The translations under genes were made by a program, and so were the position numbers. This document shows positions 31,033 through 58,591 of a stretch of DNA of 64,000 nucleotides, piece by piece (position 1 is the first letter of the stretch; every line of letters starts with the position of its first letter). The notes beneath the pieces were generated by a model. The model was given only the letters and a program-made list of their open reading frames with translations. It was not told the DNA's origin and searched no databases. The stretch covers positions 3,263 to 67,262 of the forward strand of contig JAEZLJ010000164.1 of NCBI GenBank assembly GCA_023415275.1, read 5' to 3'. This DNA comes from Bacteroidota bacterium (lineage in GTDB: Bacteria; Bacteroidota; Bacteroidia; Chitinophagales; Chitinophagaceae).

Positions 31033-31130
31033 AAGTGAAGTGGAAAGCCGGTAGAAAAAAATTGTGCAGCCTATAGTTCAAACACAGTGAAGAAGGGATA
31101 CAATTTCAATGCTGTTGCCTGTTACTTAGG

Positions 31131-31724
31131 TTACAATAATGCTTTTAGCTGCGCAATAAATTCACTGTTGTCATAATTGGCAAAGCCTTCATGTTTAAAA
31201 ACCACCTTGCCTGTTTTATCAAGCACCACTGTAGTGGGTAAGGTGCCGGAATAGATGCCCGAAGGGGCATTGCCCGCACGGGTAAACAAAGGCATTACAA
31301 ATCCCTTTTTTTGCAAAAACTCTTTTGCCTTTTCAGGATCTTCATCTTCATTGATAAAAAGAAAAACAAACCGCTCATCTCCACGTAACTGCTTGTACAT
31401 GGCATTCATACCTGGCATCTCCGCCACGCAGGGCGGGCACCAGGTAGCCCAAAAATTAATGAATACAACCTTGCCTTCCAGTTCGGCGGTGGAGCTGGCC
31501 ACACCATTCACATCACGAAACACAAAATGCTGAGCAGGCGCCTGGTTTTGATTCACCACTGCTTCTTTTTTCATTCCCGCTTTAAACAGTCCCACGTTCA
31601 TGAACTGCCTTAACAGCCATGCTTTAGCTGCAGGATTAAAAACCAGGAGCAAAAGCAATCCAATGAATAGATAATTGCCTACTTTTTTTACAATAGGTTT
31701 ATTGAACTTTTGCATGAATGACAT
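31131..31724 (-). CDS. TlpA family thiol:disulfide oxidoreductase
   Basis: An N-terminal anchor is followed by the thioredoxin fold motif FWATWCPPCVAEMP. Confidence 0.85.
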   Translation of the reverse strand: MSFMQKFNKPIVKKVGNYLFIGLLLLLVFNPAAKAWLLRQFMNVGLFKAGMKKEAVVNQNQAPAQHFVFRDVNGVASSTAELEGKVVFINFWATWCPPCVAEMPGMNAMYKQLRGDERFVFLFINEDEDPEKAKEFLQKKGFVMPLFTRAGNAPSGIYSGTLPTTVVLDKTGKVVFKHEGFANYDNSEFIAQLKALL

Positions 31725-31786
31725 ATTGGTATTGAATGGCCAGGGGAAAATATAACCCTGGTGCTTATAATAAAATGCAAACTTTC

Positions 31787-32092
31787 CTAGCCTGTTTGTA
31801 AGGCATTCCAGGCACCACCATTATACACTTCAATCCCTGCAGATTTTAAAATAGTTTTGGCCATAGCGCTTCGGCTACCGCTACGGCATACCGTTACCAC
31901 TGGCTTATTCCATTGGCGGATGATGTCGGCTTTCAATTTGATCTCATTCAAAGGAATATTCTTAGACCCGGCAATATGGCCTTGCTGGTATTCAGCCTTT
32001 GTACGCACATCCAGTATTACGGCACCCTGCTGCAGCGCTTCGGAAAGACCTGCATTACCAGTTGAAAACAGGCGTTTGATAAATGAAAACAT
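31787..32092 (-). CDS. Single-domain rhodanese sulfurtransferase
   Basis: It has the active-site loop CRSGSRS and GHIAGSKNIP. The start is set at MFSFIKRL. Confidence 0.85.
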   Translation of the reverse strand: MFSFIKRLFSTGNAGLSEALQQGAVILDVRTKAEYQQGHIAGSKNIPLNEIKLKADIIRQWNKPVVTVCRSGSRSAMAKTILKSAGIEVYNGGAWNALQTG

Positions 32093-32166
32093 CAGTAATA
32101 ATTTTTTAAGTATAAGAACCATGCAAGGGCAGGTTACACGTCATTTTCTTACCTGCCCATGAACCA

Positions 32167-33585
32167 TTATTGAACTAAAGTGGTAGGACATACATAATCA
32201 GTGACAGGAAGTGCGCCTGATTCCTTTATGGCCTTAAATCCACCCTTTACATCCACCAGTTGATCAAATCCCCTGGCTTTTAATATAGAAGCGAAGATCA
32301 TGGAGCGGTAGCCACCGGCACAATGCACATAATAAGGCTGGCCCTTATCCAGCGAAGACAATTGTTCATTGATATTGTCCAATGGTGTATTGATAGCTCC
32401 TTCCATATGCTCTGCCTTGTATTCTGAAGGTTTACGTACGTCCAGTACCGTTACTTTGTCTTTTGAAAGGTTTTTAGCCAATTCTTCTGCCGTGATGGAC
32501 ACAATATGATCTACTTGCTTACCGGCGGCTTTCCAGGATTCAAATCCACCTTTCAAAAAACCTATGGTATGATCATATCCTACTCTCGCCAGGCGGGTGA
32601 TCACTTCTTCCTCCCTGCCGTCATCAGCCACAATCAGTATTTGTTGTTTGATATCCGGGATCAGTGCTCCCACCCAGGGTGCAAAGGATCCATCAATACC
32701 AATGTTGATAGAATTGGGAATAAAGCCCCTGGCAAATGTTTGAGGATCCCTGGTGTCTAGTACCAGAGCGCCTGTTTCGTTAGCGGCTGTTTCAAAAGCT
32801 TCGGGTGAAAGCGCATGGTTTCCTCTTTCCATGACTTCTGCAATGCTTTCGTAACCTTCTTTGTTCAACATTACATTCAAAGGAAAATAAGCCGGGGGAG
32901 TGGTTAATCCTTCAGTCACCTCTTTGATAAACGCATCCCTGCTCATATCGGCACGCAAAGCATAGTTGGTTTTTTTCTGGTGGCCCAGCGTGTCCGAGGT
33001 TTCTTTGCTCATATTCTTGCCGCAGGCGCTTCCTGCCCCGTGGGCAGGATACACAATGATATCGTCTGAAAGAGGCATGACCTTGTTGCGCAGCGAATCG
33101 AAAAGCAACCCTGCCAGTTCATCCTGCGAAAGGTGGGCAGCCTTCTGCGCCAGGTCCGGACGGCCTACATCCCCAATGAACAGGGTATCGCCTGAGAACA
33201 AGGCCACATCTTTACCCTTTTCATCACGCAGCAGGTAGCAGGTGCTTTCCATGGTATGCCCGGGGGTATGCAACACCTTGAAGCTTACGTGGCCTACTTG
33301 GAATTCCTCGCCGTCTTTGGCAATATGGGCTTTGAACGATGGCTCCGCAGTTGGCCCATACACTATGGGTGCACCGGTTTGTTTGGAAAGATCCAGGTGG
33401 CCGGAAACAAAGTCCGCATGAAAATGGGTTTCAAACACATATTTGATTTGAGCTCCATTGGCCTTAGCCTTTTGCACATAGGACTCAACCTCTCTCAATG
33501 GATCAATCACTACTGCTTCTCCTTCACTTTCTATATAATAGGCACCTTGTGCCAGGCAACCGGTATATATCTGTTCTATTTTCAT
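32167..33585 (-). CDS. MBL-fold persulfide-dioxygenase-like protein fused to two rhodanese domains (CstB/Blh-like)
   Basis: The N-terminal metallo-beta-lactamase motif is THFHADFVSGH. The middle rhodanese-like domain has no catalytic Cys. The C-terminal rhodanese domain has the active loop HCAGGYRS. Confidence 0.9.
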   Translation of the reverse strand: MKIEQIYTGCLAQGAYYIESEGEAVVIDPLREVESYVQKAKANGAQIKYVFETHFHADFVSGHLDLSKQTGAPIVYGPTAEPSFKAHIAKDGEEFQVGHVSFKVLHTPGHTMESTCYLLRDEKGKDVALFSGDTLFIGDVGRPDLAQKAAHLSQDELAGLLFDSLRNKVMPLSDDIIVYPAHGAGSACGKNMSKETSDTLGHQKKTNYALRADMSRDAFIKEVTEGLTTPPAYFPLNVMLNKEGYESIAEVMERGNHALSPEAFETAANETGALVLDTRDPQTFARGFIPNSINIGIDGSFAPWVGALIPDIKQQILIVADDGREEEVITRLARVGYDHTIGFLKGGFESWKAAGKQVDHIVSITAEELAKNLSKDKVTVLDVRKPSEYKAEHMEGAINTPLDNINEQLSSLDKGQPYYVHCAGGYRSMIFASILKARGFDQLVDVKGGFKAIKESGALPVTDYVCPTTLVQ

Positions 33586-33668
33586 ATCAATAGGTTTTTA
33601 ATTTTCCTGAACAAAATTCGCTTTCCCCATGCTTACCTTCCGTGACACCGATCACAGTTGGAAATCCA

Positions 33669-34472
33669 TTATTTCAGCAGGGTTTCTTTTATAATAATGT
33701 AGATGCCCATCACCAGCACAAACCAGCCAAAGCCCTTCCTGAGCTTATTGCCCGGGATCTTTTTTCCCATGGAGCCGCCAATAAAAATACCGGCAATGGC
33801 TATAGCACTTACTTTAGCCAGGAATATCCAGTCGATGGTAAAATGCCCGAGATCGCCGGTGAACCCGATCAGCGAATTCAGGGCAATGATCATCAGTGAA
33901 GTACCTATAGCTTTTTTCATGGGCAGCCTTAACAAAAACACGAGTGCCGGTATCAGCAAAAAGCCACCTCCAGCACCCAAAAAACCCGTTACCAGGCCAA
34001 TGGCAATACCATAGGCCACCAACTTGCCAAAACGGATGCTATCCATAGATTCGTTATCCGCCACTACCTGTTTTCTTTTTGAGCTACGTATCATGCTGAT
34101 AGAAGCCAGGAGCATGAGAAGCGCAAAGAGAACCATTGTAAGTAAAGATTCGGTAATGGTAAAGCTGCCAATGGTGGCTATTTGTTTGGGAATGGCAGGC
34201 ACCAGGAACTTGCGGGTAAGAAATACCGTGACAATAGAGGAAGCTCCAAACAGCAGGGCCGCCTTCACATTTACCATTCCTTTCCGAAGATTGTTCAGCG
34301 CACCGACCAGGCTGGTAGATCCCACAACAAACAGGGAATAGGAAGTGGCCAGCAGGGGTTGCAGTCCAAACAGGTACACCATTACAGGCACCGTAAGTAT
34401 TGAACCACCGCCACCGATCAGTCCCAGCGAAATGCCAATGAGTAAGGATGCTATATAACCAATTAATTCCAT
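33669..34472 (-). CDS. TauE/SafE family sulfite exporter
   Basis: It is a membrane protein with the repeated GGGGSILTVP and GAGGGFLLIPAL motifs. The start is set at MELIGYIASL, because the upstream 45 codons look non-coding. Confidence 0.85.
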   Translation of the reverse strand: MELIGYIASLLIGISLGLIGGGGSILTVPVMVYLFGLQPLLATSYSLFVVGSTSLVGALNNLRKGMVNVKAALLFGASSIVTVFLTRKFLVPAIPKQIATIGSFTITESLLTMVLFALLMLLASISMIRSSKRKQVVADNESMDSIRFGKLVAYGIAIGLVTGFLGAGGGFLLIPALVFLLRLPMKKAIGTSLMIIALNSLIGFTGDLGHFTIDWIFLAKVSAIAIAGIFIGGSMGKKIPGNKLRKGFGWFVLVMGIYIIIKETLLK

Positions 34473-34520
34473 TAGTATTATTATGATTGTGCAAAGCTGG
34501 AAAAAGGTATCGTCGTTTAC

Positions 34521-34536
34521 CGTGATACTGATCACG
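34521..34536. promoter_or_regulatory. Perfect 16-bp palindrome CGTGATACTGATCACG, a candidate Crp/Fnr-family operator
   Basis: The core GTGAT-N4... reads as GTGA-N6-TCAC (CRP-like) and also as TGAT-N4-ATCA (FNR-like). It lies about 50-65 nt upstream of the TauE start and downstream of the adjacent Crp/Fnr gene. Confidence 0.45.
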
Positions 34537-34746
34537 CATGAACCTTTAAACTTATTCCCGGCTACAAGATTAATATTTAATTTTCCAAGACATAGCCTGC
34601 TACCCAATTCAGGAATGAAAGAGGATAATTAAGAAAGAAAGGTTTGCCCGTCCATGTTAAGAATTTCTCCGGTAACTCCGGGCAGGCGAGAGGCATTTAA
34701 AATAAAGAAATGGGAAAAAAGCAGGTGTTGAACGGCGTGCGCTTCA

Positions 34747-35391
34747 TTATAAGGCTTTATCCAGGTCCAGCAGCTCCACGTGTGAACCATGCAATTTGAT
34801 CACGCCTTTTTCTGAGAGCTTTTTCATCAGCCTGGAGATCACCTCCCGTGAGGAATTCAGATCCTGGGCTATTTCCCTGTTTGATAAGGTCATGATATTG
34901 CTGTTGAACTGTTGCTGGTGACGGCGCATATAAAAAACCAGGCGTTCATCCATGTTCCGGAAGGCAATATGATCGATGGTTTGCAATAACTCTTCAAAGC
35001 GTTCGCGGTAGGTGCTTACCGCAAACTGCGCCCAGCTTTTATACCTGCCCATCCATTCATTCACCACGTCCACAGGCACACTCAATATGGTAGATGGCTT
35101 AATGGCCCTGGCCATCACTTCACTGCGTTCCTGGCCCAGTGCACAGACCAGGGATATAGCACAGGCTTTCCCTCCATCGAGGTAGTACATAAAGAACTCA
35201 TTGCCATCATCATCCTCCCGGTAGATCTTGATCAGACCATCCAACACCAGCAGGGTAGAGCGGATGTTTTGGCCTGAACGCACCAGCAATTCGCCCGGTT
35301 GTATTGTCCTGATGTCTGCAGCATTAATCATTTCCTGAATGAGTTCTTTTTCCAGCGTCGGGAAATGCTGCATCAATTCCTTTTCGGTCAT
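34747..35391 (-). CDS. Crp/Fnr family transcriptional regulator
   Basis: A cNMP-binding-like domain is followed by a C-terminal HTH (NREIAQDLNSSREVISRLMKKL). Confidence 0.85.
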   Translation of the reverse strand: MTEKELMQHFPTLEKELIQEMINAADIRTIQPGELLVRSGQNIRSTLLVLDGLIKIYREDDDGNEFFMYYLDGGKACAISLVCALGQERSEVMARAIKPSTILSVPVDVVNEWMGRYKSWAQFAVSTYRERFEELLQTIDHIAFRNMDERLVFYMRRHQQQFNSNIMTLSNREIAQDLNSSREVISRLMKKLSEKGVIKLHGSHVELLDLDKAL

Positions 35392-35506
35392 AACCCAAAG
35401 TTAACAGCAACTATACATACTCCGAAGCACCGATGATACCGCCCCCCTAACCCAGGATAGGTCAGCTACAGATACTTAATAGGGTAAGCCAGTAAGATTG
35501 TACTAC

Positions 35507-40417: not shown

Positions 40418-40816
40418 ATGATTAGTTGGTATATAAAAATAACGAAAGCTGATAAGGGGCTAATTGCAAAGTTTTTGAAATCAATGCCTGAGTATTTTTT
40501 GTAACATTAACCAGGTTTATTTTCTTTATTGATCATAATCAAATAAGCCAGACAGTTACTACATCCGCCATTGACTTGAAAGTTAATTACAATACTTCCC
40601 AATAAATGATACTTACTATGTCAACTTATAGCATCTGAAATTTGAATGATGGTTTATAATTATATCTATTAATTAACTGCAATTGCTGCAAGGTTTTGCA
40701 ATGAATTTTCCAGATTAGCAAACTCTGCACTTTGAATATTTTTTGCAAAAGTTTTTAATCTGACCAGTCAATAAAGCTTATGTTTACAACTTGCCCTAAA
40801 GGCATATCCAATCTGC

Positions 40817-41122
40817 ATGCCCAAGCTTTTATTTCAAATTTTTATTGCTGGTAAATCCAACCGAAACAATCAATTGGTTCGGAATTACAAGGAAGCTTGT
40901 CAGGCACGTCTTGCTACTAACTCATATGAACTTACTGTAATTGATCTTGCCAGCAATCATCCACTTGCCGAACACTATAAAATCCTGGCAACACCCACCA
41001 TCTTACGCAGCCGCCCGGCGCCCGAAAGAAGAGTGATTGGCAACCTTACACCAGAAGGAGCGCAGCAAGCGCTTAATTTTTTAATAGAAGATCTAAACCA
41101 TACAAAATATGAAAAAAGCTAA
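40817..41122 (+). CDS. kaiB: Circadian clock protein KaiB homolog
   Basis: It aligns by eye along its full length to cyanobacterial KaiB, through LFQIFIAGKS, VIDLASNHPLAEHYKILATPT and RRVIGNL. It overlaps the kaiC start by 14 nt. Confidence 0.9.
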   Translation: MPKLLFQIFIAGKSNRNNQLVRNYKEACQARLATNSYELTVIDLASNHPLAEHYKILATPTILRSRPAPERRVIGNLTPEGAQQALNFLIEDLNHTKYEKS

Positions 41123-42632
41123 TGGCATCGAAAAGCTGCAACGAGTAAGAACTCCGCAGTTGCCCAAGGTTAAAACGGGGATAGAAGGATTCGATGACAT
41201 AAGCTTCGGAGGCTTGCCCAGGGGACGCTCCACACTTATTTCAGGCAGCTCGGGCAGCGGCAAAACTATATTTGCCACGCAATTCCTGTTTGAAGGTATT
41301 ACCCAGTTTGGTGAACATGGCGTTTTTGTCACATTTGAAGAAAATACAGCGGATCTAAAGCGCAACGTTCAATCCTTTGGTTGGACTCTTGATAAATTAG
41401 AAGAGAATAACCAGTGGCGTTTTATTGATGCGTCCATTGCTTCGGAAAATGAGACCAGGGTGGTTGGTGAATATGATCTTGATGGCCTCATGATCCGCAT
41501 TTTAGATGCCGTGAAGGAAATTAAAGCCAAACGGATCGTGCTTGACTCTATAGGCTCCTTATTTCACTACTTTGAGGACCCTTCCTCTATACGCCGCGAA
41601 TTGTACAAAATTCTTAACACGCTCAAAAAGAAAAACCTCATTATTCTGATTACGAGTGAGCGCCTGGAGGAATATGGATCTGTATCACGTTTTGGCGTAG
41701 AAGAATATATAGCCGACAATGTGCTTCTGCTTCGTAACGTGTTAGAAAACGAGAAGCGTCGGCGTACCATCGAGATTCTTAAATACCGGGGTTCTCTGCA
41801 TAGTGCCGGTGAGCAATCTTTTGTTATTAATCCCACTACAGGTATTCATATTATCCCGCTTACCCGCCTGCAATTAACGCAGAGCTCTTCTGAAACGAGA
41901 GTTTCGTCGGGCAATCAACCACTTGATGAAATGTGCGGCGGTGGATTTTTTAAGGACTCCATTATCCTGGTATCGGGTGCCACCGGAACTGGCAAAACCC
42001 TGATGGTAACTGAATTCATTAAGGGAGGCTTTGAGAACAAGGAAAAGGTGCTTTTCATGGCTTATGAAGAAAGTCGTGAACAATTGATTCGCAACGCATC
42101 AGGTTGGGGAGTGGATTTCCCAAGGATGGAGAAATCCGGGAAATTGAGGATTGAGGCTGTTTATCCCGAAACAGCATGCCTTGAAGAACATTTGCTTCAT
42201 ATACAAAAGCTTATAAAAGAATACAAACCAACCCGCTTTGCCCTGGACAGCCTCTCTGCTATTGAAAGGGGAAGCTCAAAGAAAAACTTCAGGGAGTTTT
42301 TAATAGCCCTTACTTCCTTTTTAAAAAAGAATGAAATAATGGCTGTTTTTACATCTACCAGTACCAATATTGTGGGTGGCACTTCTGTTACCGATAGCCA
42401 TATATCAACCATTACTGATACTATTATTCTTCTCCGCTACGCCGAGGTATTCGGAAATGTTCACCGCGTGGTTACAGTCCTGAAAATGCGTGGGTCAAAA
42501 CATACCAAGGGGATCTTTGAATTTGATATTGATCACGAGGGTATGAAGATCAGCCAAACAGAATTTGACAGGATGAGTGGGATCTTAGGGGGCATGCCCC
42601 TGCTAACTGGGAAAGATCATTCTCAGGACTAA
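41109..42632 (+). CDS. kaiC: Circadian clock protein KaiC homolog (double RecA/P-loop ATPase)
   Basis: It has IEGFDDISFGGLPRGRSTLISGSSGSGKT (CI Walker A), VTFEE (CI catalytic Glu pair), LDEMCGGGFFKDSIILVSGATGTGKT (CII Walker A), AYEES, and DSHISTITDTIILL (phospho-site segment). Confidence 0.95.
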   Translation: MKKANGIEKLQRVRTPQLPKVKTGIEGFDDISFGGLPRGRSTLISGSSGSGKTIFATQFLFEGITQFGEHGVFVTFEENTADLKRNVQSFGWTLDKLEENNQWRFIDASIASENETRVVGEYDLDGLMIRILDAVKEIKAKRIVLDSIGSLFHYFEDPSSIRRELYKILNTLKKKNLIILITSERLEEYGSVSRFGVEEYIADNVLLLRNVLENEKRRRTIEILKYRGSLHSAGEQSFVINPTTGIHIIPLTRLQLTQSSSETRVSSGNQPLDEMCGGGFFKDSIILVSGATGTGKTLMVTEFIKGGFENKEKVLFMAYEESREQLIRNASGWGVDFPRMEKSGKLRIEAVYPETACLEEHLLHIQKLIKEYKPTRFALDSLSAIERGSSKKNFREFLIALTSFLKKNEIMAVFTSTSTNIVGGTSVTDSHISTITDTIILLRYAEVFGNVHRVVTVLKMRGSKHTKGIFEFDIDHEGMKISQTEFDRMSGILGGMPLLTGKDHSQD

Positions 42633-42655
42633 TTATAATATTCACCAAATGGGTA

Positions 42656-43705
42656 GTGAGCATGAAAATTGAAATAGAGAACAGTGCAAGATTGATGCAG
42701 GCGACGGATACCATACTGGAAAATCTATTAGATGCCGTACTCGTTGTAAACAACGATGGCAATATCATTTATGCCAACCGGTCGGCCCAGGACCTGTTTT
42801 CCCGATCGGCCCATGAATTAACTGGCCAGCCTTTTGGATTTCCAATCATTCCGCATGAAGTGCAGGAAATAGAGGTTTTAAAACATGGGTTGATACTCAC
42901 TGTGCAAATGTTAGCCTCTCATATATCCTGGGACGGGCAAACTGCCTCCCTGCTTTCGCTGAGGGACATTACCGCACAAAAGCAGGTGCAGGAAGAGTTG
43001 ATACGCCAACAAAAGCTGTTGGAAAAAACCAATGAGGAAAACGCACAATATGCTTCACTGGCTTCGCATGATCTGAAAGAACCGATCCGCAAGATTTTAT
43101 TCTTTTCAGATCAGCTACTTCATAGTAATTCTTTGCCGGAAAATGACCGTGTCCAGGTTAAAAAAATACAATCATCAGCCAAACGCATGCAATCTTTAAT
43201 TAAGGGGATCGCTGAATTATCTAATATTACTTATATACGACATACGTTTGTACCGGTAAAATTAAAAGAAGTAATAGAGGATGTAGTGGAAGACCTGGAA
43301 TTGCAAATTCAGGATAAGTGTGCCAGTGTGGAAATTGCCGAATTGCCTACGATTGATGCCATCCCTGGTGAAATGTATCAATTGTTCCTCAACCTGATCG
43401 CCAATTCTTTAAAGTATAGTAAGGAGCACGTAGCACCGCATATTCTCATACAGCAAAAGGAAGCAGATGAAGGTTTTGTTTGCATTGAATGCACGGACAA
43501 CGGGATAGGCTTTGACGATAGCGCCGCAAAAAAATTGTTTCAACCTTTCCAACGGCTACATACCGCTAAATATGACGGTATGGGCATCGGGCTTACGCTT
43601 TGCCAAAAGATCGTGGATGTGCATCATGGAAAAATAACTGCCCAGGGTATGTTGAATAATGGCGCCACCTTCCGTATACTGTTGCCCGAAAAGCAAATGA
43701 ATTGA
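42656..43705 (+). CDS. Soluble PAS sensor histidine kinase linked to kaiBC
   Basis: One PAS domain and a coiled coil are followed by the H-box LASHDLKEPIRKI and a HATPase_c domain (NLIANSLKYS, DNGIGFD, GMGIGLTLCQKIV). It starts 23 nt after the kaiC stop (GTG at 42656 or ATG at 42662). Confidence 0.9.
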   Translation: MSMKIEIENSARLMQATDTILENLLDAVLVVNNDGNIIYANRSAQDLFSRSAHELTGQPFGFPIIPHEVQEIEVLKHGLILTVQMLASHISWDGQTASLLSLRDITAQKQVQEELIRQQKLLEKTNEENAQYASLASHDLKEPIRKILFFSDQLLHSNSLPENDRVQVKKIQSSAKRMQSLIKGIAELSNITYIRHTFVPVKLKEVIEDVVEDLELQIQDKCASVEIAELPTIDAIPGEMYQLFLNLIANSLKYSKEHVAPHILIQQKEADEGFVCIECTDNGIGFDDSAAKKLFQPFQRLHTAKYDGMGIGLTLCQKIVDVHHGKITAQGMLNNGATFRILLPEKQMN

Positions 43706-43816
43706 TTAGCCAGGTAAATAGTTTAGGTTTAAAGAATTTGGTCCCTTATTGGAGAAACTAGTTCATAAAAAGTTCGAAATTTTCGAAGTCTATGTTACTT
43801 CTGACAAAAGCTATGT

Positions 43817-44416
43817 TTATTTAATTAGCTTGATGCGTTTTAACCATTCCTTTACTGCCGCTTCTGCCTCCTTCCTCTTTTCATCTTTGATGTTGAGATA
43901 GATGCCATCTCTTTCAATTCCGCCTTTAATTGAGAAACCTTCCAAAACTTTACTATTCGGGCAAAGTTCTTCCACTGATTGGAAACCACTTCCGACACCA
44001 TAGCCTGCGTTCGTATTGAATGGAATAACTGTTTTGCCACGTAAGTTATACTGATTTAAAAAACTCTTCATCGGTGGCGGCATCTTCATATCCCAGGTTG
44101 GAAAGCCAATGAAAACAACATCATACTTCTCAATGCTGTCAATCTTTGTTTTTAGTAGCGGCAGGTATCCTGTTTCATTCTCATGCACGACTTGTTGTAC
44201 CGTTTGCTTATAATTCTCTGGATACGGCTTTTCCAATTCCAGCGCTACCAACGTTCCGCCTACTTTCCCTTGAATGATTTCAGCGATTGCTTTTGTATTA
44301 TTGGTGCGGGACAAATACACAATCAGTATTTTTATCGATGCCACTGATTGTGCATTTGAACATCCAGATGATATACAGAAGACAATAATAAATAATAGAA
44401 ATAGTACGGCTCTCAT
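43817..44416 (-). CDS. Flavodoxin-like lipoprotein
   Basis: It has the lipobox CISSGC followed by ILIVYLSRTNNTKAIAE and FIGFPTW, a flavodoxin-type FMN loop. Confidence 0.7.
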   Translation of the reverse strand: MRAVLFLLFIIVFCISSGCSNAQSVASIKILIVYLSRTNNTKAIAEIIQGKVGGTLVALELEKPYPENYKQTVQQVVHENETGYLPLLKTKIDSIEKYDVVFIGFPTWDMKMPPPMKSFLNQYNLRGKTVIPFNTNAGYGVGSGFQSVEELCPNSKVLEGFSIKGGIERDGIYLNIKDEKRKEAEAAVKEWLKRIKLIK

Positions 44417-44418
44417 TT

Positions 44419-45576
<1,158 letters not shown>

Positions 45577-45645
45577 ATACTGTGTTTGATAGAATGTTTA
45601 CTTTTTGTTAGAGGTAAAGCATAGTTTGCCTATTTAGGGTAATGC

Positions 45646-46875
45646 TTATTTTACCTTGTAGGCAATGATTTGACTTGTTGAAAAGGAAGGAACGTAAAGA
45701 GTTTTTGTTTTGCTGTCGTAACCAATGTCATTGGACATAACGCCGGCCGCACGGGTGTCCAGTAAAACTTGTTTTGTTCCATCAGCCTTTACACACCATA
45801 AAATGCCTTTGTAGTTGCTAAGGATAAATTCATTTTCTCCGATCATTACGATGCCGTCAAGCCCACTTTCAAAGCCGTCCGCAATTTTTGTTACTACCTT
45901 GTTGGCATCAACTTTCTGGAAGATGGTTGACGTTAATACAAACAAATCTGTATTCACCGTTAACAGGCCGTTGGCGCCGGGCATGTTTTCCAGGTAAACA
46001 GTGGGCTTGTCGCCTTCTATTCTGTACACTTTCCCCGCTCTTGTATCGCTGACATAAATAACGCCTTTTTCATCTATCGCAAGGTCATTCAACATTACCG
46101 CGCCTTCTACAGGGATGCGTTTTACAATGGTTCCTTTCGCAACATCAATGACTGCAATCGCTGTTGTTTTTGCCGTGTAAAAGAAGCCGTTAAACAAAGC
46201 CGAGCCCTTGTTTGAGTTAAGGCCTGTTACCCAGTCTTTCTTGATGGCCTTCCCTTTCGCATCCATCCGAACAACAGAGCCGGAACCCATGCTGGATACA
46301 TACAGAGAATTTGATGTTGCATCATAAAGTACTGACTCAGGATTTCTTATTGCAATGGAATCGGATTCCCATATTTTCTCCAGGCTGTGTTGTGCGTTAT
46401 TGTTCATTTTAACAGGCCGTAGCAGTGTTGAGAACGTAAGTGAACCCATCTTCCATTTGCCCCCTTTTTTGATGTAAACCTCTGTCACCATAAAAGCATG
46501 GGTGACCTCGTTTCCGCCAACCACTGCCAGCAGGTCTATATCATTTAAAAGAATAGCCGTGTTACCAAAGATGTTTACTGACGCTCCGTAAACTTCAGCT
46601 TTCTTGTACCAAATGCCGCCACCTTTGATGGTATTCAGTTCTTGGGTTTTCCCCCAACTTCCCCCCATGTGAACAAAGACACACTTCTCTGCAAACAGGC
46701 CGCTTAACGCCTCCACGTTTTTATCGGCCATCCATGCCCATTTCGTTTTGGAAAGGTCGAGTAGTTCTTGTTCTTCTTTGATTGCGCTTGTAGATGTCGT
46801 ACTTGGCAATTTGGCCTGTGCCTGTAAACTTTGCAGACTGACAAGACAGAACAATGCGAGAATAAGTTTTTTCAT
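45646..46875 (-). CDS. Secreted protein with an N-terminal DUF4440/SnoaL-like domain and a C-terminal lactonase-like beta-propeller
   Basis: It has a signal peptide, then WAWMADKNVEALSGLFAEKCVFVHMGG (NTF2-like). The C-terminal repeats (YVSDTRAGKVYRI, ANGLL) resemble the SMP-30/gluconolactonase fold. Confidence 0.65.
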   Translation of the reverse strand: MKKLILALFCLVSLQSLQAQAKLPSTTSTSAIKEEQELLDLSKTKWAWMADKNVEALSGLFAEKCVFVHMGGSWGKTQELNTIKGGGIWYKKAEVYGASVNIFGNTAILLNDIDLLAVVGGNEVTHAFMVTEVYIKKGGKWKMGSLTFSTLLRPVKMNNNAQHSLEKIWESDSIAIRNPESVLYDATSNSLYVSSMGSGSVVRMDAKGKAIKKDWVTGLNSNKGSALFNGFFYTAKTTAIAVIDVAKGTIVKRIPVEGAVMLNDLAIDEKGVIYVSDTRAGKVYRIEGDKPTVYLENMPGANGLLTVNTDLFVLTSTIFQKVDANKVVTKIADGFESGLDGIVMIGENEFILSNYKGILWCVKADGTKQVLLDTRAAGVMSNDIGYDSKTKTLYVPSFSTSQIIAYKVK

Positions 46876-46900
46876 GATAAGCTTTCGTTTTTGTATGGTG

Positions 46901-47362
46901 TTAGTTCTTGATGCTATTATATTCCTCGGTGGTTACTCTCTTTCCCCAGATTGTTCTGCCTTTTGTAACAGGTGTTACCGCCACATAAGCAAAGCTGCTA
47001 TTTGGTGCCGCACCATGCCAATGCTCCACACCGGGTTCGCATTTAATGATGTCGCCTTTGTGCACAACCTTTCCGGGTTTGCCCTTTTCCTGATAAAAAC
47101 CGGTGCCTTCTGTGATGAGCAGGTATTGCCCTCCGAGATGAATATGCCAGTCCAATTTTGAACCGGGTGCGTACACTGCCTGCGCCAAGCCGAAGGTGAA
47201 GTTGCTATCCGGTTGATTTAATTCACTCAGCCAAATGGTGCCCGAGTAATTACTGGTGTTCTTACCGATTTCACCTTTTGGAAAAAGCGTAGAGTCCTGG
47301 GCATTTGCCTGATTAAACACTGCTGTAACTGCGAACAGCAGAACAAAAAATAGTTTTTTCAT
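46901..47362 (-). CDS. Secreted cupin domain protein, paralog of 37822-38223
   Basis: It has a signal peptide, then DWHIHLGGQYLLITEG and GDIIKCEPGVEHWHGA. Confidence 0.8.
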   Translation of the reverse strand: MKKLFFVLLFAVTAVFNQANAQDSTLFPKGEIGKNTSNYSGTIWLSELNQPDSNFTFGLAQAVYAPGSKLDWHIHLGGQYLLITEGTGFYQEKGKPGKVVHKGDIIKCEPGVEHWHGAAPNSSFAYVAVTPVTKGRTIWGKRVTTEEYNSIKN

Positions 47363-47402
47363 TTGATGTCTATTGTTGATGATTTGAAGAGAATATTAGG
47401 GT

Positions 47403-49261
<1,859 letters not shown>

Positions 49262-49414
49262 TTATTTCTCTTTAACCATGCAAAGGTCACGGCTTCTTTT
49301 TACCGGGATGGTATACAGATTCCGGATTTATCTACCAATATTGCTGATTTGGGCCTGCCGGGTAATGAAGGGGTGAAGAATGCGGTAATTTTGACTTTGT
49401 TAAACAGAAGTGAT

Positions 49415-50311
49415 ATGGAAAACATGCGACGGTTTGAGACAGTTAACGATTACAATGTATTTAACCAATATGAAACCCGACATCCGCTGATTACGGTGAT
49501 TGATATGTCAAAGGCGGCACCGCGGAAGGCCACCAATATGTATTATGGCCTTTATACCGTCTTTTTAAAAGAGGTGAAATGCGGTGATTTGCGTTATGGC
49601 CGGGCTACCTATGACTATCAGGAAGGAACATTGGTATTCATTGCACCGGGTCAGGTAGTGAGTGTGGAAAACGCCGGAGAGACGTATCAACCTAAAGGCT
49701 ATGCCTTGGCTTTTCATCCGGATTTGATACATGGCACCTCATTGGGCCGGCACATGCAGGAGTATACTTTCTTTTCTTACCAATCCAATGAAGCCTTGCA
49801 TTTGTCAGAACGGGAACGGAAAATTGTCCTGGACCTGTTTTCCAAGATTGAATACGAATTGGAACATGCCATTGATAAGCACAGCAAACGGTTGATCGTC
49901 TCTAATATTGAAATGCTGCTCAACTATTGTGTTCGCTTTTATGACCGCCAGTTCCTTACCCGTGAGAATGTAAATAAAGGCAATTTGGAAAGGTTTGAGC
50001 AGTTATTGAATGACTATTTTATTTCAGGTAAACCACAAACCATTGGTTTGCCTTCCGTAGCCTGGTGTGCCAGTGAATTAAATTTATCGGCCGGTTATTT
50101 TGGAGATCTAATCAAAAAAGAAACGGGGAAAACAGCACAAGATTATATACAAGAGAAGGTGATTGAGGTGGCTAAAGAGCGAATATTTGACCAAAGTAAA
50201 TCAGTTAGTCAAATTGCTTATGAACTTGGATTCAAGTACCCACAACATTTTACCCGTTTATTTAAACAGCGGGTTGGCCAGTCACCAAATGAATACAGGA
50301 TGCTTAATTAA
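49415..50311 (+). CDS. AraC family transcriptional regulator
   Basis: The C-terminal double HTH reads SVAWCASELNLSAGYFGDLIKKETG ... IAYELGFKYPQHFTRLFKQRVGQSPNEYR. The ORF-track start at 48845 is an artefactual extension antisense to the AKR gene. ATG 49415 (or 49424) is preferred. It is divergent from the AKR operon. Confidence 0.85.
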   Translation: MENMRRFETVNDYNVFNQYETRHPLITVIDMSKAAPRKATNMYYGLYTVFLKEVKCGDLRYGRATYDYQEGTLVFIAPGQVVSVENAGETYQPKGYALAFHPDLIHGTSLGRHMQEYTFFSYQSNEALHLSERERKIVLDLFSKIEYELEHAIDKHSKRLIVSNIEMLLNYCVRFYDRQFLTRENVNKGNLERFEQLLNDYFISGKPQTIGLPSVAWCASELNLSAGYFGDLIKKETGKTAQDYIQEKVIEVAKERIFDQSKSVSQIAYELGFKYPQHFTRLFKQRVGQSPNEYRMLN

Positions 50312-50415
50312 ACCGGTAAGATTTTGCTAAAGCTCGGATCAAATTGTAATCAATAATTACCCTAACCAGCCCCAAACTGCTTAAACTCCCAATTTGCCTA
50401 TAAAGAACAATTTTG

Positions 50416-50487
50416 TAGCCCGGACAAGAATCGAACTTGTATCTAAAGTTTAGGAAACTTCTATTCTATCCATTGAACTACCGGGCC
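50416..50487 (-). tRNA. tRNA-Arg (anticodon CCT)
   Basis: The hand-folded cloverleaf is GGCCCGG/CCGGGCT acceptor (first pair G-U), GTTC/GAAT D-stem, GAAGT/ACTTT anticodon stem with loop TTCCTAA, and ACAAG/CTTGT T-stem with loop TTCGATT. The discriminator is A, and CCA is not encoded. Confidence 0.9.
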
Positions 50488-53000: not shown

Positions 53001-54197
53001 ATGACCAGGATCTTGTGCCTGCTGCTGTTGCTTAATTGCACTTCCTGCTATATGATTCGCGCCTATAAGGTGCGGAAGTTCCAGTTGACAGACCCGCAAC
53101 GCATGCCCTATGTAAGTATACCTGCCTCCACCATTCCTTATCGATTTAAAAATGACTCTACTGATGACAGGTATAAGGACATCAAAAGCTACCTCGATTC
53201 CACACTACCCAGGTCATTAACAGCAGCCTTCCTGGTAATAAAGAATGACAGTATCATTTATGAACGATATTTTAACGGTTTTACACAGGACTCAAAACTG
53301 CCTTCTTTTTCAGTAGCCAAATCATTTGTAAGTACACTGATCTCTGTGGCACTGATGGAAGGAAAGATCAGTTCTTTGCAGGATCCCATTACAAAATATC
53401 TACCCGAGCTTATTGAGACCGACAGCCGTTATGAAAGAATTACGCTGCAGCACCTGCTGGATATGAAAAGCGGCCTGCATTTCAATGAAGGCTCCTATGG
53501 ATTGCATGATGATGCTATCAAGCTGGGTTTTAGGCCCAACCTATACAAGCATGTATTAAAAGTAAAAATTGAAAAGGAGCCGGGAAAGGAATTCAAGTAC
53601 CAAAGTATCAATACGGAACTGCTGGCATTGGCCCTGGAAAAAGCAACCGGTAAAAAGATCTCCACCTACCTGCAGGAAAAGATCTGGCAGCCCCTGGGTG
53701 CTGAATTTGAAGCCAACTGGAATGTGGACAGTAAAAAGCATAAGCAGGAAATAGCTTTTGCAGGATTGAATGCTGCTGCCAGGGATTTTGCCAAGCTGGG
53801 GCAATTATATTTAAACAAAGGCACCTGGCGGGGAAAGCAGGTACTGACTCCTGCCTGGGTAAGCACAGTAAACAATGTGGATAGCATGGAAAAGGCCGCA
53901 GGATATAAGAATCAATGGTGGAGCGAATTAATCAACGTTTACTTCCAGGATTCTTTGTCTGCTGACCGTTTTCGCAGGATAACTCCACATTCAGACCAGG
54001 TAAACAAAACAGCAAGAGGCTACCAGGTTCGCTACCGCACCGATGCTTTTAATGCTGAAGGCATTCTCAACCAATTCATTTATATCAAACCTAAAAGCAA
54101 TATAGTGATCGTAAGACTGGGAAGGAATTGGTACCATCCCAACATGTACGCCAGTCAATATATTTACAACCTTGGAGAAAGACTATCCTCATTCTAA
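53001..54197 (+). CDS. Serine hydrolase (beta-lactamase/PBP4-like family)
   Basis: It has the SxxK motif SVAKSF and a beta-lactamase-fold context ([19 protein letters not shown]). Confidence 0.85.
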
Positions 54198-56894
54198 CAC
54201 AGGACGCAACCATCTTTCAGCTTCTTCCAGGCTCATGCTTTTACGATTGGCATAGTCTTCCAGTTGGTCCCTGCCAATCTTGCCCAATCCAAAATAATGG
54301 CTTTGGGGGTGTGCAAAATACCAACCGCAAACAGAAGCCGGTGGATCCATAGCCAGGCTTTCTGTCAATGTGATACCTGCATTTTCGGTAGCATTCAGTA
54401 GTTCAAACAGTTTCCACTTCTCTGTATGATCTGGGCATGCAGGGTAACCAGGTGCAGGTCTGATGCCTTTATATTGCTCTTTGATCAGCTGCTCACTGGT
54501 CAGTGCTTCATTTTTTTCATATCCCCAATATTCCTTGCGCACCTGCTCATGCAGGCATTCTGCAAAGGCTTCCACGAAACGGTCGGCCAATATCTGCACC
54601 AGGATCTTATTGTACTCATCGTGCTGGGATATGAAACGGTCAATATGCTTTTTGGCGCCATGAATAGAGACGGCAAAGGCTCCCATGTAATCATCACCTT
54701 TGGGAGAAACAAAATCTGCCAGTGAATAACTGGGTTGGCCAGCCGCTTTTTTAGATTGCTGCCGAAGCGATTCCAGATTTACTGTGCCCTTATCAGTATG
54801 CAGTGTAATGGTATCCCTGTTATTGCTGGAAGCAGGCCAAAAGCCTATTACGCCATTAGCTGTAAACCATTTCTCTGCAATGATCTGGTCTACCATTTTC
54901 AATGCATCATTGTACAACCGGGTAGCTTCCTTTCCATATCTTTCATCCGATAATACTTCGGGAAATCTTCCAGGCATTTCCCAACCAATAAAGAATGGCC
55001 CCCAGTCAATGTACCGTGCAATGGAGGCAAGATCATAATCCTGCAACACCTTAACGCCTTCTACTTCAGGTTTCACAGGCTGGTAATTATCCCAGTCCAG
55101 TATTTCCTTATTGGCTACTGACTGTTCATAAGGTATCAATACCTTATTCTTTTGCTTATTCAAAAACTGCTGGCGCAATGCATCATATTCAATACCTGTC
55201 TGCTGAAGGAAGCCTTCCTTATTTTCTTTGCTGAGCAGGTTACTGACCACGGTCACACTTCTTGATGCATCCAGCACATATACCACACCCTGCTCATACT
55301 CAGGTGCGATCTTCACAGCGGTATGCGTACGGGAGGTAGTGGCACCGCCAATGAGCAATGGCTGCTTCATATTCCGGCGCTTCATTTCCCTGGCCACATG
55401 CACCATTTCATCCAGCGAAGGCGTAATCAATCCACTTAGTCCTATCACATCCACATTTTCCTTTTCTGCGGTATCCAGTATTTTATCTGCAGGCACCATT
55501 ACACCCATGTCAATGACATCGTAGCCATTGCACCCCAATACCACTCCCACAATATTTTTTCCAATGTCATGCACATCACCTTTCACAGTGGCCATCAGCA
55601 CTTTGGCTGCACCGGCAGTTTCCATTGCACTGGTGCCGGCAGCTTGATGCGCTTTCATCCTTTCTTCTTTTTCTGCTTCGATATAAGGCGTGAGTATGGC
55701 CACAGATTTTTTCATAACCCTGGCACTTTTCACTACCTGCGGGAGGAACATTTTACCACTGCCAAACAGATCACCTACTACGTCCATACCAGCCATCAGG
55801 GGACCTTCGATCACATCCAGTGGCTTTGGATATTTGGTTCTTGCTTCTTCTGTATCAGCATCTATATAATCGGTGATACCATTCACCAGGGCATGCTTCA
55901 GTCGTTCTTCCACCGTAGTATTTCGCCAACTCTCATCTTTTGCTTCTCCTTCCCTGCCTTTGGCTTTTACTGTCTCGGCAAAGTTTACAAGTCTTTCGGT
56001 AGCATCCGGCCTGCGGTTCAGGATCACATCTTCACACAATTCCCTCAACTGTGGTTCTATTTCATCATACACCACCAGCTGCCCGGCATTGACAATTCCC
56101 ATATCCAGACCAGCCCTGATGGCATGATACAGGAATACAGCATGAATAGCTTCCCGCACATGATCGTTGCCCCTGAATGAAAAAGACACATTGCTTACGC
56201 CCCCACTCACCTTAACCAAGGGCATACGTTGCTTGATGATACGTGTGGCCTCTATAAAATCAACTGCGTAATTATTATGTTCTTCTATGCCGGTGGCAAT
56301 GGCAAAGATGTTGGGATCAAAGATGATATCCTGAGGCTCAAACCCCACCTGCTCTGTCAGGATCTTATAGGCTTTCTCACAAATAGATACTCTCCTTTCC
56401 AGGGTATCGGCCTGGCCCTGCTCATCAAAAGCCATCACCACTACAGCCGCACCATAGGCCTGGCAAATAAAAGCCTGTTCAATGAACTTAGCCTCCCCTT
56501 CCTTCATGGAAATGGAGTTAACAATACATTTTCCCTGCACGCATTTCAAGCCTGCTTCAATGATCTCAAACTTGGAAGAATCGATCATGATAGGGATCTT
56601 AGCGATATCCGGCTCTGCCTGCAACAGGTTGAGGAAAGTGGTCATGGCCTTTACTCCATCCAGTAAGGCATCATCCATGTTCACATCCAGCACCTGGGCC
56701 CCGTTCTCCACCTGCTGTCGGGCCACGCTGAGCGCCTCCTCATATTTATTTTCACGTACCAGCCGGGCAAACTTTTTAGATCCCGTTACATTAGTGCGCT
56801 CACCTACATTGATAAAATTGGATTCTGGGCGGATGGTCAACGGCTCCAACCCGGATAGTTTCAGATAAGGCTTGATCGTATTTCGTTCAGTCAT
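54189..56894 (-). CDS. metH: Methionine synthase, C-terminal part (pterin-binding, B12-binding and AdoMet-activation domains)
   Basis: It has LKLSGLEPL...[11 protein letters not shown] (start of the pterin domain), [10 protein letters not shown] (the DxHxxG B12 motif), and the activation domain [12 protein letters not shown]. The ATG at 56894 is preferred over the GTG at 56912. Confidence 0.9.
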
Positions 56895-56905
56895 ATTAAT
56901 AAATT

Positions 56906-57370
56906 GAACCACGGAGGCACAAAGGCACAGAGTGGCACAGCGATTATAAAATCATTCGTTTAATACCATTCTTTATTAATGGTACATGGAAATTTATAAG
57001 ATATCCCAGTCGTTTGTTAGTTAATTTAAGATAACTGAGCATTTGAGCTTGCCAAACATGATGAGTATCTTCCTGGGCTTTTAATTCAAGTATGATAAGA
57101 TCCTCAACCATTATGTCAATTCTCAATCCATCAGCAATGACAAGATTATTATATTTAATTTCTACAGATTGTTGCCTGGTGTAAGCAATATTTCTTACAT
57201 CCAATTCATGGCAAAAACATTTTTCATAGATACTCTCTAACAACCCTGGTCCTAATGCTTTATGAATATGAAAAGCAATATCAACAACCTGCTCTGCCAG
57301 CCATTGTTCTCTTGTTGTTAGAGGATCAAAATGCTCTGTGTAAATCTGTGTCATTGTGTCTCTGTGGTTC
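56906..57370 (-). mobile_element. Putative inverted-repeat-flanked GxxExxY cassette between the metH halves
   Basis: Arms of 37/38 nt at 56906-42 and 57333-70 are inverted copies with 29 of 37 positions identical. They bracket a single ORF. Mobility itself is not demonstrated. Confidence 0.4.
56944..57354 (-). CDS. GxxExxY protein (PDDEXK_3 nuclease-fold family)
   Basis: It has [17 protein letters not shown] (the G-x-x-E-x-x-Y motif), then [14 protein letters not shown] (D...E-x-K nuclease-like core) and GYLINF. It starts at ATG 57354 or TTG 57372. Confidence 0.8.
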
Positions 57371-57375
57371 AAAAT

Positions 57376-58383: not shown

Positions 58384-58591
58384 AATAATTCGTTTAGACA
58401 AAATAGCGAACCTGGATATGGCTGAAGGCTGGTGATGCTAATAAACGAGGAATCCCTGGAGTGTGAGTTTCTACGTTTATTAGTTCTGTTGAGGCCGAAC
58501 AATAAACAAATCCGCCTGCGAGGCACAAATGTAAAAAATATAAACGGGAATGGTAAAAAGATTACAACTGGCAACCTATCAATAAGGAAAA

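Follow-up and report, generated by a model that had tools for sequence, protein, structure and literature searches.

A conserved kaiB–kaiC–histidine kinase unit without a neighbouring kaiA gene in Chitinophagaceae

The 64-kb stretch of contig JAEZLJ010000164.1 (assembly GCA_023415275.1) that we analysed, hereafter the window, carries a kaiB gene, a kaiC gene that overlaps it and a gene for a PAS-containing histidine kinase, all on the same strand. Our analysis suggests that these genes form a functional, vertically maintained operon of the Chitinophagaceae, most likely a KaiA-independent KaiBC nucleotide/phosphorylation switch that reports through the co-transcribed kinase; we hold this reading with moderate confidence. 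The genes form a genuine module that is probably active. As a lineage-specific representative of a known class, it reveals by itself no new mechanism or type of system. The new points are the joint absence of KaiA3, of the KaiC tail and of the KaiB fold-switch segment, and the resemblance of its KaiC to a reconstructed pre-oscillator KaiC.

Results

The three-gene unit is conserved and under purifying selection

The initial annotation of this DNA, made from the sequence alone, described a 101-aa KaiB, a 507-aa KaiC and a 14-nt overlap of their genes, all of which were reproduced in the open reading frame (ORF) list. It placed the kinase gene 23 nt after kaiC. This distance applies if the GTG at 42656 is the start codon, whereas gene callers and the protein database use the ATG at 42662, which gives a spacer of 29 nt. 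The AT-rich region of roughly 400 bp described upstream is a spacer of 399 bp with a GC content of 0.30, compared with 0.435 window-wide, and the ORF list contains no ORF of at least 50 aa in it; the convergent downstream gene encodes a flavodoxin. The proposal that the three genes make up one self-contained unit gained support from related genomes. Eight loci were found by scanning genome contigs with query-specific peptides, and all seven other Chitinophagaceae genomes keep the order kaiB–kaiC–kinase, with gaps of about 65 nt or less and with different flanks. These genomes belong to Flavisolibacter, Pollutibacter, Flaviaesturariibacter and Flavitalea or are metagenome-assembled, and their proteins share 72–86% (KaiC), 37–70% (KaiB) and 44–68% (kinase) amino-acid identity with those of the window. 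The three ORFs are intact in 8/8 genomes, save for one probable frameshift in a metagenome-assembled genome (L012). Upstream of kaiB, a gap with no ORF of at least 90 aa is found in the six Chitinophagaceae loci that include this region. An identical KaiC is encoded on 13 metagenome contigs, one of them from a farmland soil sample. Cultured carriers of the module are Pollutibacter soli JS81 and Flaviaesturariibacter aridisoli 17J68-15, and Pseudocnuella soli has at least a clade-type KaiB, encoded on a contig of 4.8 Mb.

We compared five conspecific variants from soil metagenomes with ~99% nucleotide identity. Synonymous and non-synonymous changes numbered 23 and 0 in kaiC, 2 and 0 in kaiB, and 14 and 3 in the kinase gene, and the upstream spacer had 17 variable sites in 399 nt, about three times the level of coding DNA. 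Between genera, non-synonymous divergence (pN) was ~0.10 for kaiC and 0.21–0.23 for kaiB and the kinase gene, with synonymous divergence (pS) of ~0.8, at which synonymous sites are saturated. The unit is under strong purifying selection. Its GC content and its GC content at third codon positions (GC3) match the window average.

The window also encodes a homologue of the gliding-motility protein GldM and SusC-like TonB receptors, and the nearest named KaiC homologues come from Flavisolibacter and other Chitinophagaceae. The host is therefore a member of the Bacteroidota, as first supposed, and more precisely a Flavisolibacter-like heterotroph of the Chitinophagaceae.

KaiC is of KaiC1/KaiC3 grade and resembles a non-oscillating ancestor

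KaiC matched the Pfam KaiC ATPase family twice (392 bits) and scored above both NCBIfam equivalog cut-offs for "circadian clock protein KaiC" (NF006799 / TIGR02655; 657 versus 408 and 587.1 versus 546.25). In a neighbour-joining tree, a check proposed in the initial annotation, the Chitinophagaceae proteins formed a monophyletic family-level clade of 63 clusters. The same tree, which included no authenticated Synechocystis KaiC3, left an unresolved three-way split between this clade, a KaiA3-linked group and the KaiC1 lineage. Alignment to Synechococcus elongatus KaiC (reference sequence identical to PDB 1U9I) agreed with the earlier statement that both Walker A loops (CI, GSSGSGKT, aa 46–53; CII, GATGTGKT, aa 290–297) and both catalytic Glu pairs (CI, E77/E78; CII, E320/E321) are intact. 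Similarly, the Arg fingers are intact (CI, R227; CII, R461), and all of these positions are invariant or nearly so in the 63 clade members. The segment TDSHISTITD is identical to the S. elongatus segment bearing T426, S431 and T432, which correspond here to T428, S433 and T434; the dual phosphosite and the T426 equivalent are strictly conserved in the 63 clade members.

Among solved structures, the window KaiC scored 601 bits with ancestral KaiC-beta (8ZN5), 532 with S. elongatus KaiC and 325 with Rhodobacter sphaeroides KaiC. Its identity is 57% to 8ZN5, 55–56% to KaiA3-linked KaiCs and 50% to S. elongatus KaiC. By these sequence features the protein is assigned to the KaiC1/KaiC3 grade and not to the KaiC2 type. 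A KaiC2-type system was considered as a candidate and rejected on the absent C-terminal extension, the S-T phosphosites and the bit scores.

The A-loop equivalent is uncharged (E487 to S and R488 to G, S. elongatus numbering), and clade KaiCs end ~12 residues past its GILGG anchor. The tail motif [ED]xxR[LIVM]xx[LIVMF] was present in 0/60 clade KaiCs versus 52/57 sister-group KaiCs; by analogy with work on S. elongatus and Thermosynechococcus (PMC5520375), this tail would bind KaiA or KaiA3. An uncharged A-loop pattern has been linked to KaiA-independent kinase activity, which was shown experimentally for KaiC3 proteins (Schmelling et al., PMC5520375).

Mukaiyama et al. 2025 (PMC12081879) list five differences that set non-rhythmic KaiC-beta apart from its rhythmic counterparts, KaiC-gamma and S. 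elongatus KaiC. At four of the five, the window KaiC is beta-like: it has Ala (A202) for S201, Glu (E396) for Q394 and Arg (R443) for Q441, in S. elongatus numbering, and a Pro insertion in the nucleotide-enclosure loop. This insertion corresponds to P235 of the non-oscillating ancestral KaiC-beta and is found neither in rhythmic KaiC-gamma nor in S. elongatus KaiC. E394 and R441 are essentially invariant within the clade, and Q394E abolishes rhythm when put into S. elongatus KaiC (PMC12081879). The CI B-loop, judged by the known KaiB–CI structures 5JWO and 8FWJ, would bind KaiB.

KaiB is predicted to adopt the fold-switched form

KaiB matched Pfam PF07689 with 58.5 bits against a gathering cut-off of 27, and fell below the NCBIfam equivalog cut-offs for clock KaiB (TIGR02654 / NF006798; 42.5 versus 110 and 38.4 versus 145.3). 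On these scores it is classed as a KaiB-family member and not as an equivalog of clock KaiB. The KaiBs paired with a KaiA-type gene, taken from S. elongatus and five sister loci described below, are 55–72% mutually identical across phyla and all keep IGDLSDxEKVLxGLD. The window KaiB is 35–41% identical to these proteins, over residues 1–78 only, and has NLTPEGAQQALNFLIEDLN in place of the canonical fold-switch segment DLSDxEKVLxGLD. The consensus FLxEDLNxxKxEKS is found in the eight closest KaiB homologues and is absent from canonical KaiBs. The last codons of EDLNHTKxEKS overlap the kaiC start, so the overlap may add to the constraint; the constraint (window 41087–41122) could lie in the protein, in translational coupling or in both.

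AlphaFold2 (AF2), supplied with the 13 closest sequences, returned KaiB in the fold-switched topology only (predicted local distance difference test score, pLDDT, 88). The best fold matches in the PDB were 5JYT (fold-switch-stabilised), 4KUN (Legionella) and 8FWJ (bound to R. sphaeroides KaiC). Further matches were KaiB–CI complexes and the thioredoxin-like domain of SasA (SasA–CI complex 6X61), and no ground-state KaiB was among the top 50 fold matches. KaiB is thus predicted to sit in its fold-switched, KaiC-binding form. The AF-Cluster study made such predictions from the ten closest sequences, and for characterised KaiBs, the fold-switched Legionella KaiB among them, these agreed with the favoured state (PMC10808063).

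The linked kinase is a soluble orphan

The initial annotation called the third gene product a soluble PAS-HisKA-HATPase kinase, and the domain analysis agreed. HisKA (33.1 bits) and HATPase_c (74.2 bits) both scored above their Pfam cut-offs, one PAS domain spans aa 18–104, and the H, N, G1, F and G2 boxes were all located, with His136 as the phospho-accepting residue. No membrane segment is present: the maximum Kyte-Doolittle 19-mer value is 1.19, compared with 3.12 in the neighbouring antiporter. A Pfam search of the kinase found no receiver domain, no KaiB-like domain of the SasA type and no pseudo-receiver domain of the CikA type. The protein is a soluble class I kinase and an orphan: the records of the called genes (window ~1–52 kb) list no receiver-domain gene, and none was found in eight ORFs scanned at 52–64 kb.

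The kinase gene lies directly 3' of kaiC in all seven Chitinophagaceae loci. The homology of the window kinase to the Kai-linked kinase of sister locus L023 extends over the whole protein (27% identity, E 6e-46), and its PAS region is 32% identical to that of the Kai-linked kinase of L021 (E 1.5e-20). Given this homology to Kai-linked kinases of other phyla, the kaiC–kinase linkage appears older than the clade.

Other kinases were noted as well. Two adjacent multi-PAS histidine kinases of 810 and 788 aa are encoded ~17 kb upstream (19152–21584 and 21740–24106, both on the minus strand); the kinase core of the 788-aa protein shares 38% identity with the Kai-linked kinase, and neither gene has a response regulator gene nearby. 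In the uncultured clade member represented by L013, the kai unit is followed (L013:9192–11323) by a 165-aa ORF with receiver-domain similarity, detected by tblastn only, and by another histidine kinase, which has 36% identity to the Kai-linked kinase. This is the sole clade locus with a candidate partner regulator nearby.

KaiA is absent from the window and KaiA3-like genes stand at non-cyanobacterial sister loci

As the initial annotation had noted, the window has no kaiA-like ORF. The KaiA family is not on record in the called genes and was not found in the eight ORFs scanned at 52–64 kb, and a profile of the KaiA3-like C-terminal domain had no match in six frames of the window or in 13 related loci. 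No kaiA occurs within ~6 kb of kaiBC in seven related genomes. Two further ideas were dropped: a kaiA3 remnant in the upstream spacer, where tblastn and profile searches found no similarity, and an occurrence of KaiA3 in Bacteroidota, which proved wrong when checked against the paper.

Below 67% identity, the KaiC match list falls to a band at 55–59% from Chloroflexota, Acidobacteriota, Verrucomicrobiota, Bacillota and Cyanobacteria. We sampled seven sister loci with KaiCs at 52–58% identity, six non-cyanobacterial (L014, L019–L023) and one cyanobacterial, in which KaiC stands alone. All six non-cyanobacterial loci have, in this order, a gene for a protein of 210–305 aa, kaiB, kaiC and a PAS-containing transducer, which is a kinase, a hybrid kinase, a kinase-GGDEF protein or a SpoIIE phosphatase. 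The proteins encoded upstream of kaiB share a C-terminal domain of ~105 aa, and most have an N-terminal receiver domain. For a profile of the shared domain, the eight best PDB matches were KaiA C-terminal domains (best E 0.0015). From these features, the upstream genes can be assigned the KaiA3 architecture of Koebler et al. 2024 (PMC11372060). A KaiA3-like gene therefore stands directly upstream of kaiB in 6/6 non-cyanobacterial sister loci, where the window has a non-coding spacer instead.

A separate difference was seen in the CI Walker A loop (GxxxxGKT). Its second Gly is Ala or Ser (GTAGSAKT) in 46/57 KaiA3-linked or KaiC3-like sister KaiCs (P0064–P0120; for example L017, L019 and L020) and is kept in 63/63 Chitinophagaceae KaiCs.

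Regulatory signals

A TAnnTTT[G/A] element lies 15–40 nt 5' of the kaiB start in the window (TATGTTTA) and at L007 (TAAGTTTG), L008 (TACGTTTG), L010 and L011 (TACCTTTA). This box, shared by five loci, is the sole candidate promoter element and is proposed from sequence. The upstream spacer has only relaxed matches and no strict TAnnTTTG box. A sigma-70 scan showed no enrichment (9 found versus 9.0 expected from shuffled sequence), and an intrinsic-terminator scan found no excess of sites over shuffled sequence. Similarly, a hairpin inside the kaiB 3' end (41058–41074) was within chance expectation, the RNA fold of the 3' spacer was no more stable than its shuffles (z = +1.1), Rfam reported no RNA element near the operon, and no 8-mer was common to at least five of the eight upstream regions.

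Features and neighbouring genes

Table 1 Features of the kai unit and its immediate neighbours in window coordinates.
Feature	Position	Strand	Description or evidence
Spacer	40418–40816	+	AT-rich, non-coding; presumed promoter region, between a divergent Na+/H+ exchanger gene and kaiB
Candidate −7 promoter box TATGTTTA	40779–40786	+	Bacteroidota type, consensus TAnnTTTG; relaxed match
kaiB	40817–41122	+	101 aa; ORF list and Pfam KaiB
KaiB C-terminal motif EDLNHTKYEKS	41087–41119	+	Clade-specific; replaces end of canonical fold-switch segment
kaiC	41109–42632	+	507 aa, double-domain, KaiC1/KaiC3 grade; 14-nt overlap with kaiB
CI B-loop region, aa 108–124	41430–41480	+	Present; one extra residue, clade-specific sequence
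CI nucleotide-enclosure loop VINPTTG, aa 239–245	41823–41843	+	One-residue insertion containing Pro
CII phosphorylation segment TDSHISTITD, then ILLRYA	42390–42443	+	Alignment to S. elongatus KaiC
A-loop equivalent SGILGGMPLLT and truncated seven-residue end	42576–42629	+	Uncharged; KaiA-binding tail absent
Histidine kinase, PAS-HisKA-HATPase_c	42662–43705	+	347 aa, cytoplasmic; 349 aa if GTG 42656 is used
Flavodoxin gene	43817–44416	−	Convergent, downstream neighbour of kinase; ORF list and Pfam

The gene that follows the kinase differs between conspecific strains whose operon DNA is ~99% identical and whose KaiC protein is identical. The window (43706–44420) and L001 have the flavodoxin gene; L003 (5730–6750) and L005 (3900–4920) have a short-chain dehydrogenase gene and then a different aldo-keto reductase gene. 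The strain-level replacement starts directly past the kinase stop codon.

Downstream of the kai unit (43800–50320), the window carries redox and detoxification genes, namely those for the flavodoxin, three aldo-keto reductases, a cupin, a DUF4440/SGL protein, an AraC-type regulator and a glyoxalase; a tRNA gene lies at 50416–50487 on the minus strand. A sulfur-handling cluster (31100–35400) encodes a TauE exporter, a rhodanese, a metallo-beta-lactamase-rhodanese fusion and a redoxin, and is adjoined by a Crp-type regulator. Additionally, methionine synthase is apparently split (54189–58401, minus strand) into a homocysteine S-methyltransferase domain gene (57376–58401) and a gene for the pterin-binding, B12 and activation domains (54189–56912), with a small PD-(D/E)XK_3 family gene (56944–57372) between them.

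Discussion

Proposed mechanism

In the switch that we favour, KaiC hexamers would autophosphorylate on S433 and T434 without any KaiA. The CI ATPase would be slow, temperature-dependent and biased towards the ADP state, as in ancestral KaiC-beta, and KaiB, predicted to be permanently in a thioredoxin-like, binding-competent fold, would dock on the B-loop of the ADP-biased CI ring. When ATP/ADP or temperature changes, the bound KaiB would tip KaiC towards dephosphorylation, as in R. sphaeroides KaiBC (PMC10076222). The PAS kinase may read or gate the KaiBC state and phosphorylate an unlinked response regulator. Such a module would behave as an environmentally reset hourglass or as an energy or stress sensor, rather than as a self-sustained, temperature-compensated oscillator.

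Several points weigh against this interpretation. We infer that KaiC autophosphorylates and binds KaiB and that the kinase is coupled to them, and the window has no response regulator gene close to the kai unit. As no promoter or terminator for the unit is statistically supported, co-transcription is deduced from spacing and conservation. At the fifth of the rhythmicity-linked KaiC positions, S48 in S. elongatus numbering, the window has the Ser of the rhythmic type. The absence of KaiA applies to the 64-kb window, and an unlinked KaiA, KaiA3 or analogue is possible; given the three-way split of the KaiC tree, a loss of KaiA3 and an ancestry that never had it are both compatible. Finally, AF2 calls of KaiB fold state are contested in two publications (PMC11344769, PMC10836070). 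As such predictions are disputed, we take that for the window KaiB as a lead only.

Alternative explanations

The strongest rival is a stress-response module without any timing function, a role proposed for Legionella pneumophila and environmental Pseudomonas. The ATPase and the phosphorylation state of KaiC, together with KaiB, would then act on stress resistance by way of the kinase. We consider it possible, if on balance rather doubtful. In both sequence and predicted fold, the window KaiB is nearest to Legionella KaiB, whose crystal structure shows the fold-switched form (PMC10808063). The host is non-phototrophic and lives in soil, the beta-like residues point less to a clock than to a slow ATPase with an ADP bias, and stress roles of KaiBC homologues are cited by Koebler et al. 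(PMC11372060). However, the strict conservation of the dual phosphosite and of the T426 equivalent across the 63 clade members argues for an ordered phosphorylation cycle rather than a simple ATPase. This rival also overlaps the hourglass form of the favoured switch, and sequence alone cannot separate the two.

We regard it as unlikely that soil heterotrophs of the Chitinophagaceae truly keep daily time with this unit, as an hourglass or a damped oscillator that temperature or energy state would reset. This reading builds on a pre-oscillator KaiC of KaiC-beta grade, a KaiB taken to be permanently fold-switched, and the lack of both KaiA and a coiled-coil extension. If true, it would make the unit the first timekeeper known from Bacteroidota and a natural model of the stage before the cyanobacterial clock.

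A third possibility, which seems improbable to us, is that the kinase serves as input and not as output: its PAS domain would sense a ligand or redox state, the kinase would adjust KaiBC or a shared regulator, and KaiBC would be the effector or integrator. PAS domains are typical sensor modules, and the partners at sister loci vary in output (hybrid kinase, GGDEF, SpoIIE phosphatase) while all keep PAS. The kinase also has no docking domain of the SasA (KaiB-like) or CikA (pseudo-receiver) type. On the other side, it lacks a receiver domain or any other evident means of acting back on KaiC, and SasA and CikA, the Kai-linked kinases of the one well-understood system, are outputs. A kinase used as input would change the wiring of the module, not its identity.

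We consider it highly improbable that the unit is a true circadian oscillator that sustains itself, whether through KaiBC alone or with a KaiA-like activator that is unlinked or escaped recognition. In its favour are the KaiC1/KaiC3 grade, the S/T phosphosites, both ATPase sites, the S48 of rhythmic KaiCs and a KaiA search that covered the window and not the whole genome. Against this, the KaiA-binding tail is missing clade-wide, and no KaiA- or KaiA3-like domain is found near any of the eight loci. The canonical fold-switch segment is missing from KaiB; in the KaiABC clock, the slow interconversion of this segment adds to the delay. Q394E alone kills the S. elongatus rhythm, and the window KaiC shares Q441R, S201A and the Pro insertion with KaiC-beta, which does not oscillate (PMC12081879). 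The beta-like residues, the lost KaiC tail and the predicted fold-switched KaiB all argue against a free-running clock, signs that the initial annotation had not taken up.

Recent horizontal transfer, with decaying, pseudogenised or non-expressed genes, which the patchiness of KaiBC genes among bacteria and the flanks that differ between genera (and between conspecific strains downstream of the kinase) might suggest and which the initial annotation had named as fatal to its proposal, is effectively refuted by clade-wide conservation (intact ORFs apart from L012; a monophyletic, family-level KaiC clade), purifying selection (no non-synonymous changes in natural variants of kaiB and kaiC) and host-like GC and GC3.

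Significance

Our literature searches found no functional study of a Bacteroidota KaiBC system, in line with the initial annotation. The novelty that it implied did not hold, since kaiBC beside a PAS histidine kinase is the usual non-cyanobacterial arrangement (PMC3164672, PMC4794148) and public pipelines already name these proteins KaiB and KaiC. The finding modestly extends the range of Kai systems: a 2017 survey reported Bacteroidetes with KaiB2/KaiC2-like proteins only (PMC5520375), whereas a KaiC of KaiC1/KaiC3 grade occurs throughout the Chitinophagaceae clade. The clade offers a natural comparison set in which the KaiA3 gene and the KaiC tail are absent and the KaiB fold-switch segment is remodelled together with them. 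It lends itself to the question of what role KaiB has in a system without a KaiA that it could sequester, and could show how a KaiC resembling a reconstructed non-oscillating ancestor behaves in a living cell. These questions are testable because cultured relatives carry the module.

Comparison with known systems

Nearly all non-cyanobacterial kaiBC genes adjoin a histidine kinase or GGDEF/EAL gene (De Luca et al. 2011, PMC3164672). The closest comparison, missed at first, is with the kaiA3–kaiB3–kaiC3 clusters known from Synechocystis sp. PCC 6803 (Koebler et al. 2024, PMC11372060) and found here at L014 and L019–L023. They have the same kaiB–kaiC order, and their KaiCs likewise are ~500–510 aa long with S/T phosphosites, an uncharged A-loop, Q394E, Q441R and the Pro insertion. 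At the non-cyanobacterial loci of this type, a PAS-containing transducer also follows kaiC, and the kinases among these are homologous to that of the window. The window differs in having no KaiA3-like gene, no KaiC tail motif and no DLSDxEKVLxGLD in KaiB, and in its canonical CI Walker A loop. Its KaiB is 38–41% identical to the KaiBs of KaiA3 clusters, which share 60–72% with each other.

Ancestral KaiC-beta (8ZN5; Mukaiyama et al. 2025) is the best solved-structure match and shares S201A, the Pro insertion, Q394E and Q441R, features tied to an ADP-locked CI, a destabilised A-loop and loss of rhythmicity (PMC12081879). KaiC-beta did not oscillate with any KaiA/KaiB set, and its ATPase was temperature-dependent (PMC12081879). 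It is a computed reconstruction that differs from the window KaiC at position 48 (Pro instead of Ser) and in its longer C-terminal tail.

Legionella pneumophila KaiB (Lpp1115, 4KUN) is the top sequence match to the window KaiB (48 bits) and its second-best fold match. Legionella is likewise a heterotroph with a fold-switched KaiB (PMC10808063); its KaiC is of the KaiC2 type (PMC5520375), and the identity between the two KaiBs is ~31–34%.

The cyanobacterium Prochlorococcus MED4, in which KaiA is lost, provides another KaiA-less case. Its system is built on a cyanobacterial KaiC1 orthologue with SasA/RpaA output and has no PAS kinase operon. The MED4 KaiBC is an hourglass that is not self-sustained, and its KaiC functions in the absence of KaiA by way of a modified A-loop (PMC5520375, PMC3164672).

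Finally, Rhodopseudomonas palustris and R. sphaeroides (KaiC2 subgroup; PMC4794148, PMC10076222) are also non-cyanobacterial and also have a KaiBC without KaiA and, at the same locus, a PAS histidine kinase; their kaiC–kaiB–PAS/HK operon was described in 2016 (PMC4794148). The gene order is kaiB–kaiC in the window and kaiC–kaiB in these species. The C-terminal coiled-coil extension of ~50 aa typical of KaiC2 systems is absent (507 aa versus 568 aa in R. sphaeroides KaiC), the phosphosites are S-T rather than the S-S of the KaiC2 type (PMC5520375, PMC10076222), and the window KaiC scores only 325 bits against R. sphaeroides KaiC compared with 532 against S. elongatus KaiC. Given these differences in gene order, extension, phosphosites and similarity, the route to KaiA-independent autophosphorylation must differ from that of KaiC2 systems. 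R. sphaeroides KaiB binds KaiC in a thioredoxin-like fold, and the complex (8FWJ) is among the best fold matches of the window KaiB. R. sphaeroides KaiBC, an hourglass reset by the ATP/ADP ratio (PMC10076222), is the best available mechanistic template for the Chitinophagaceae unit.

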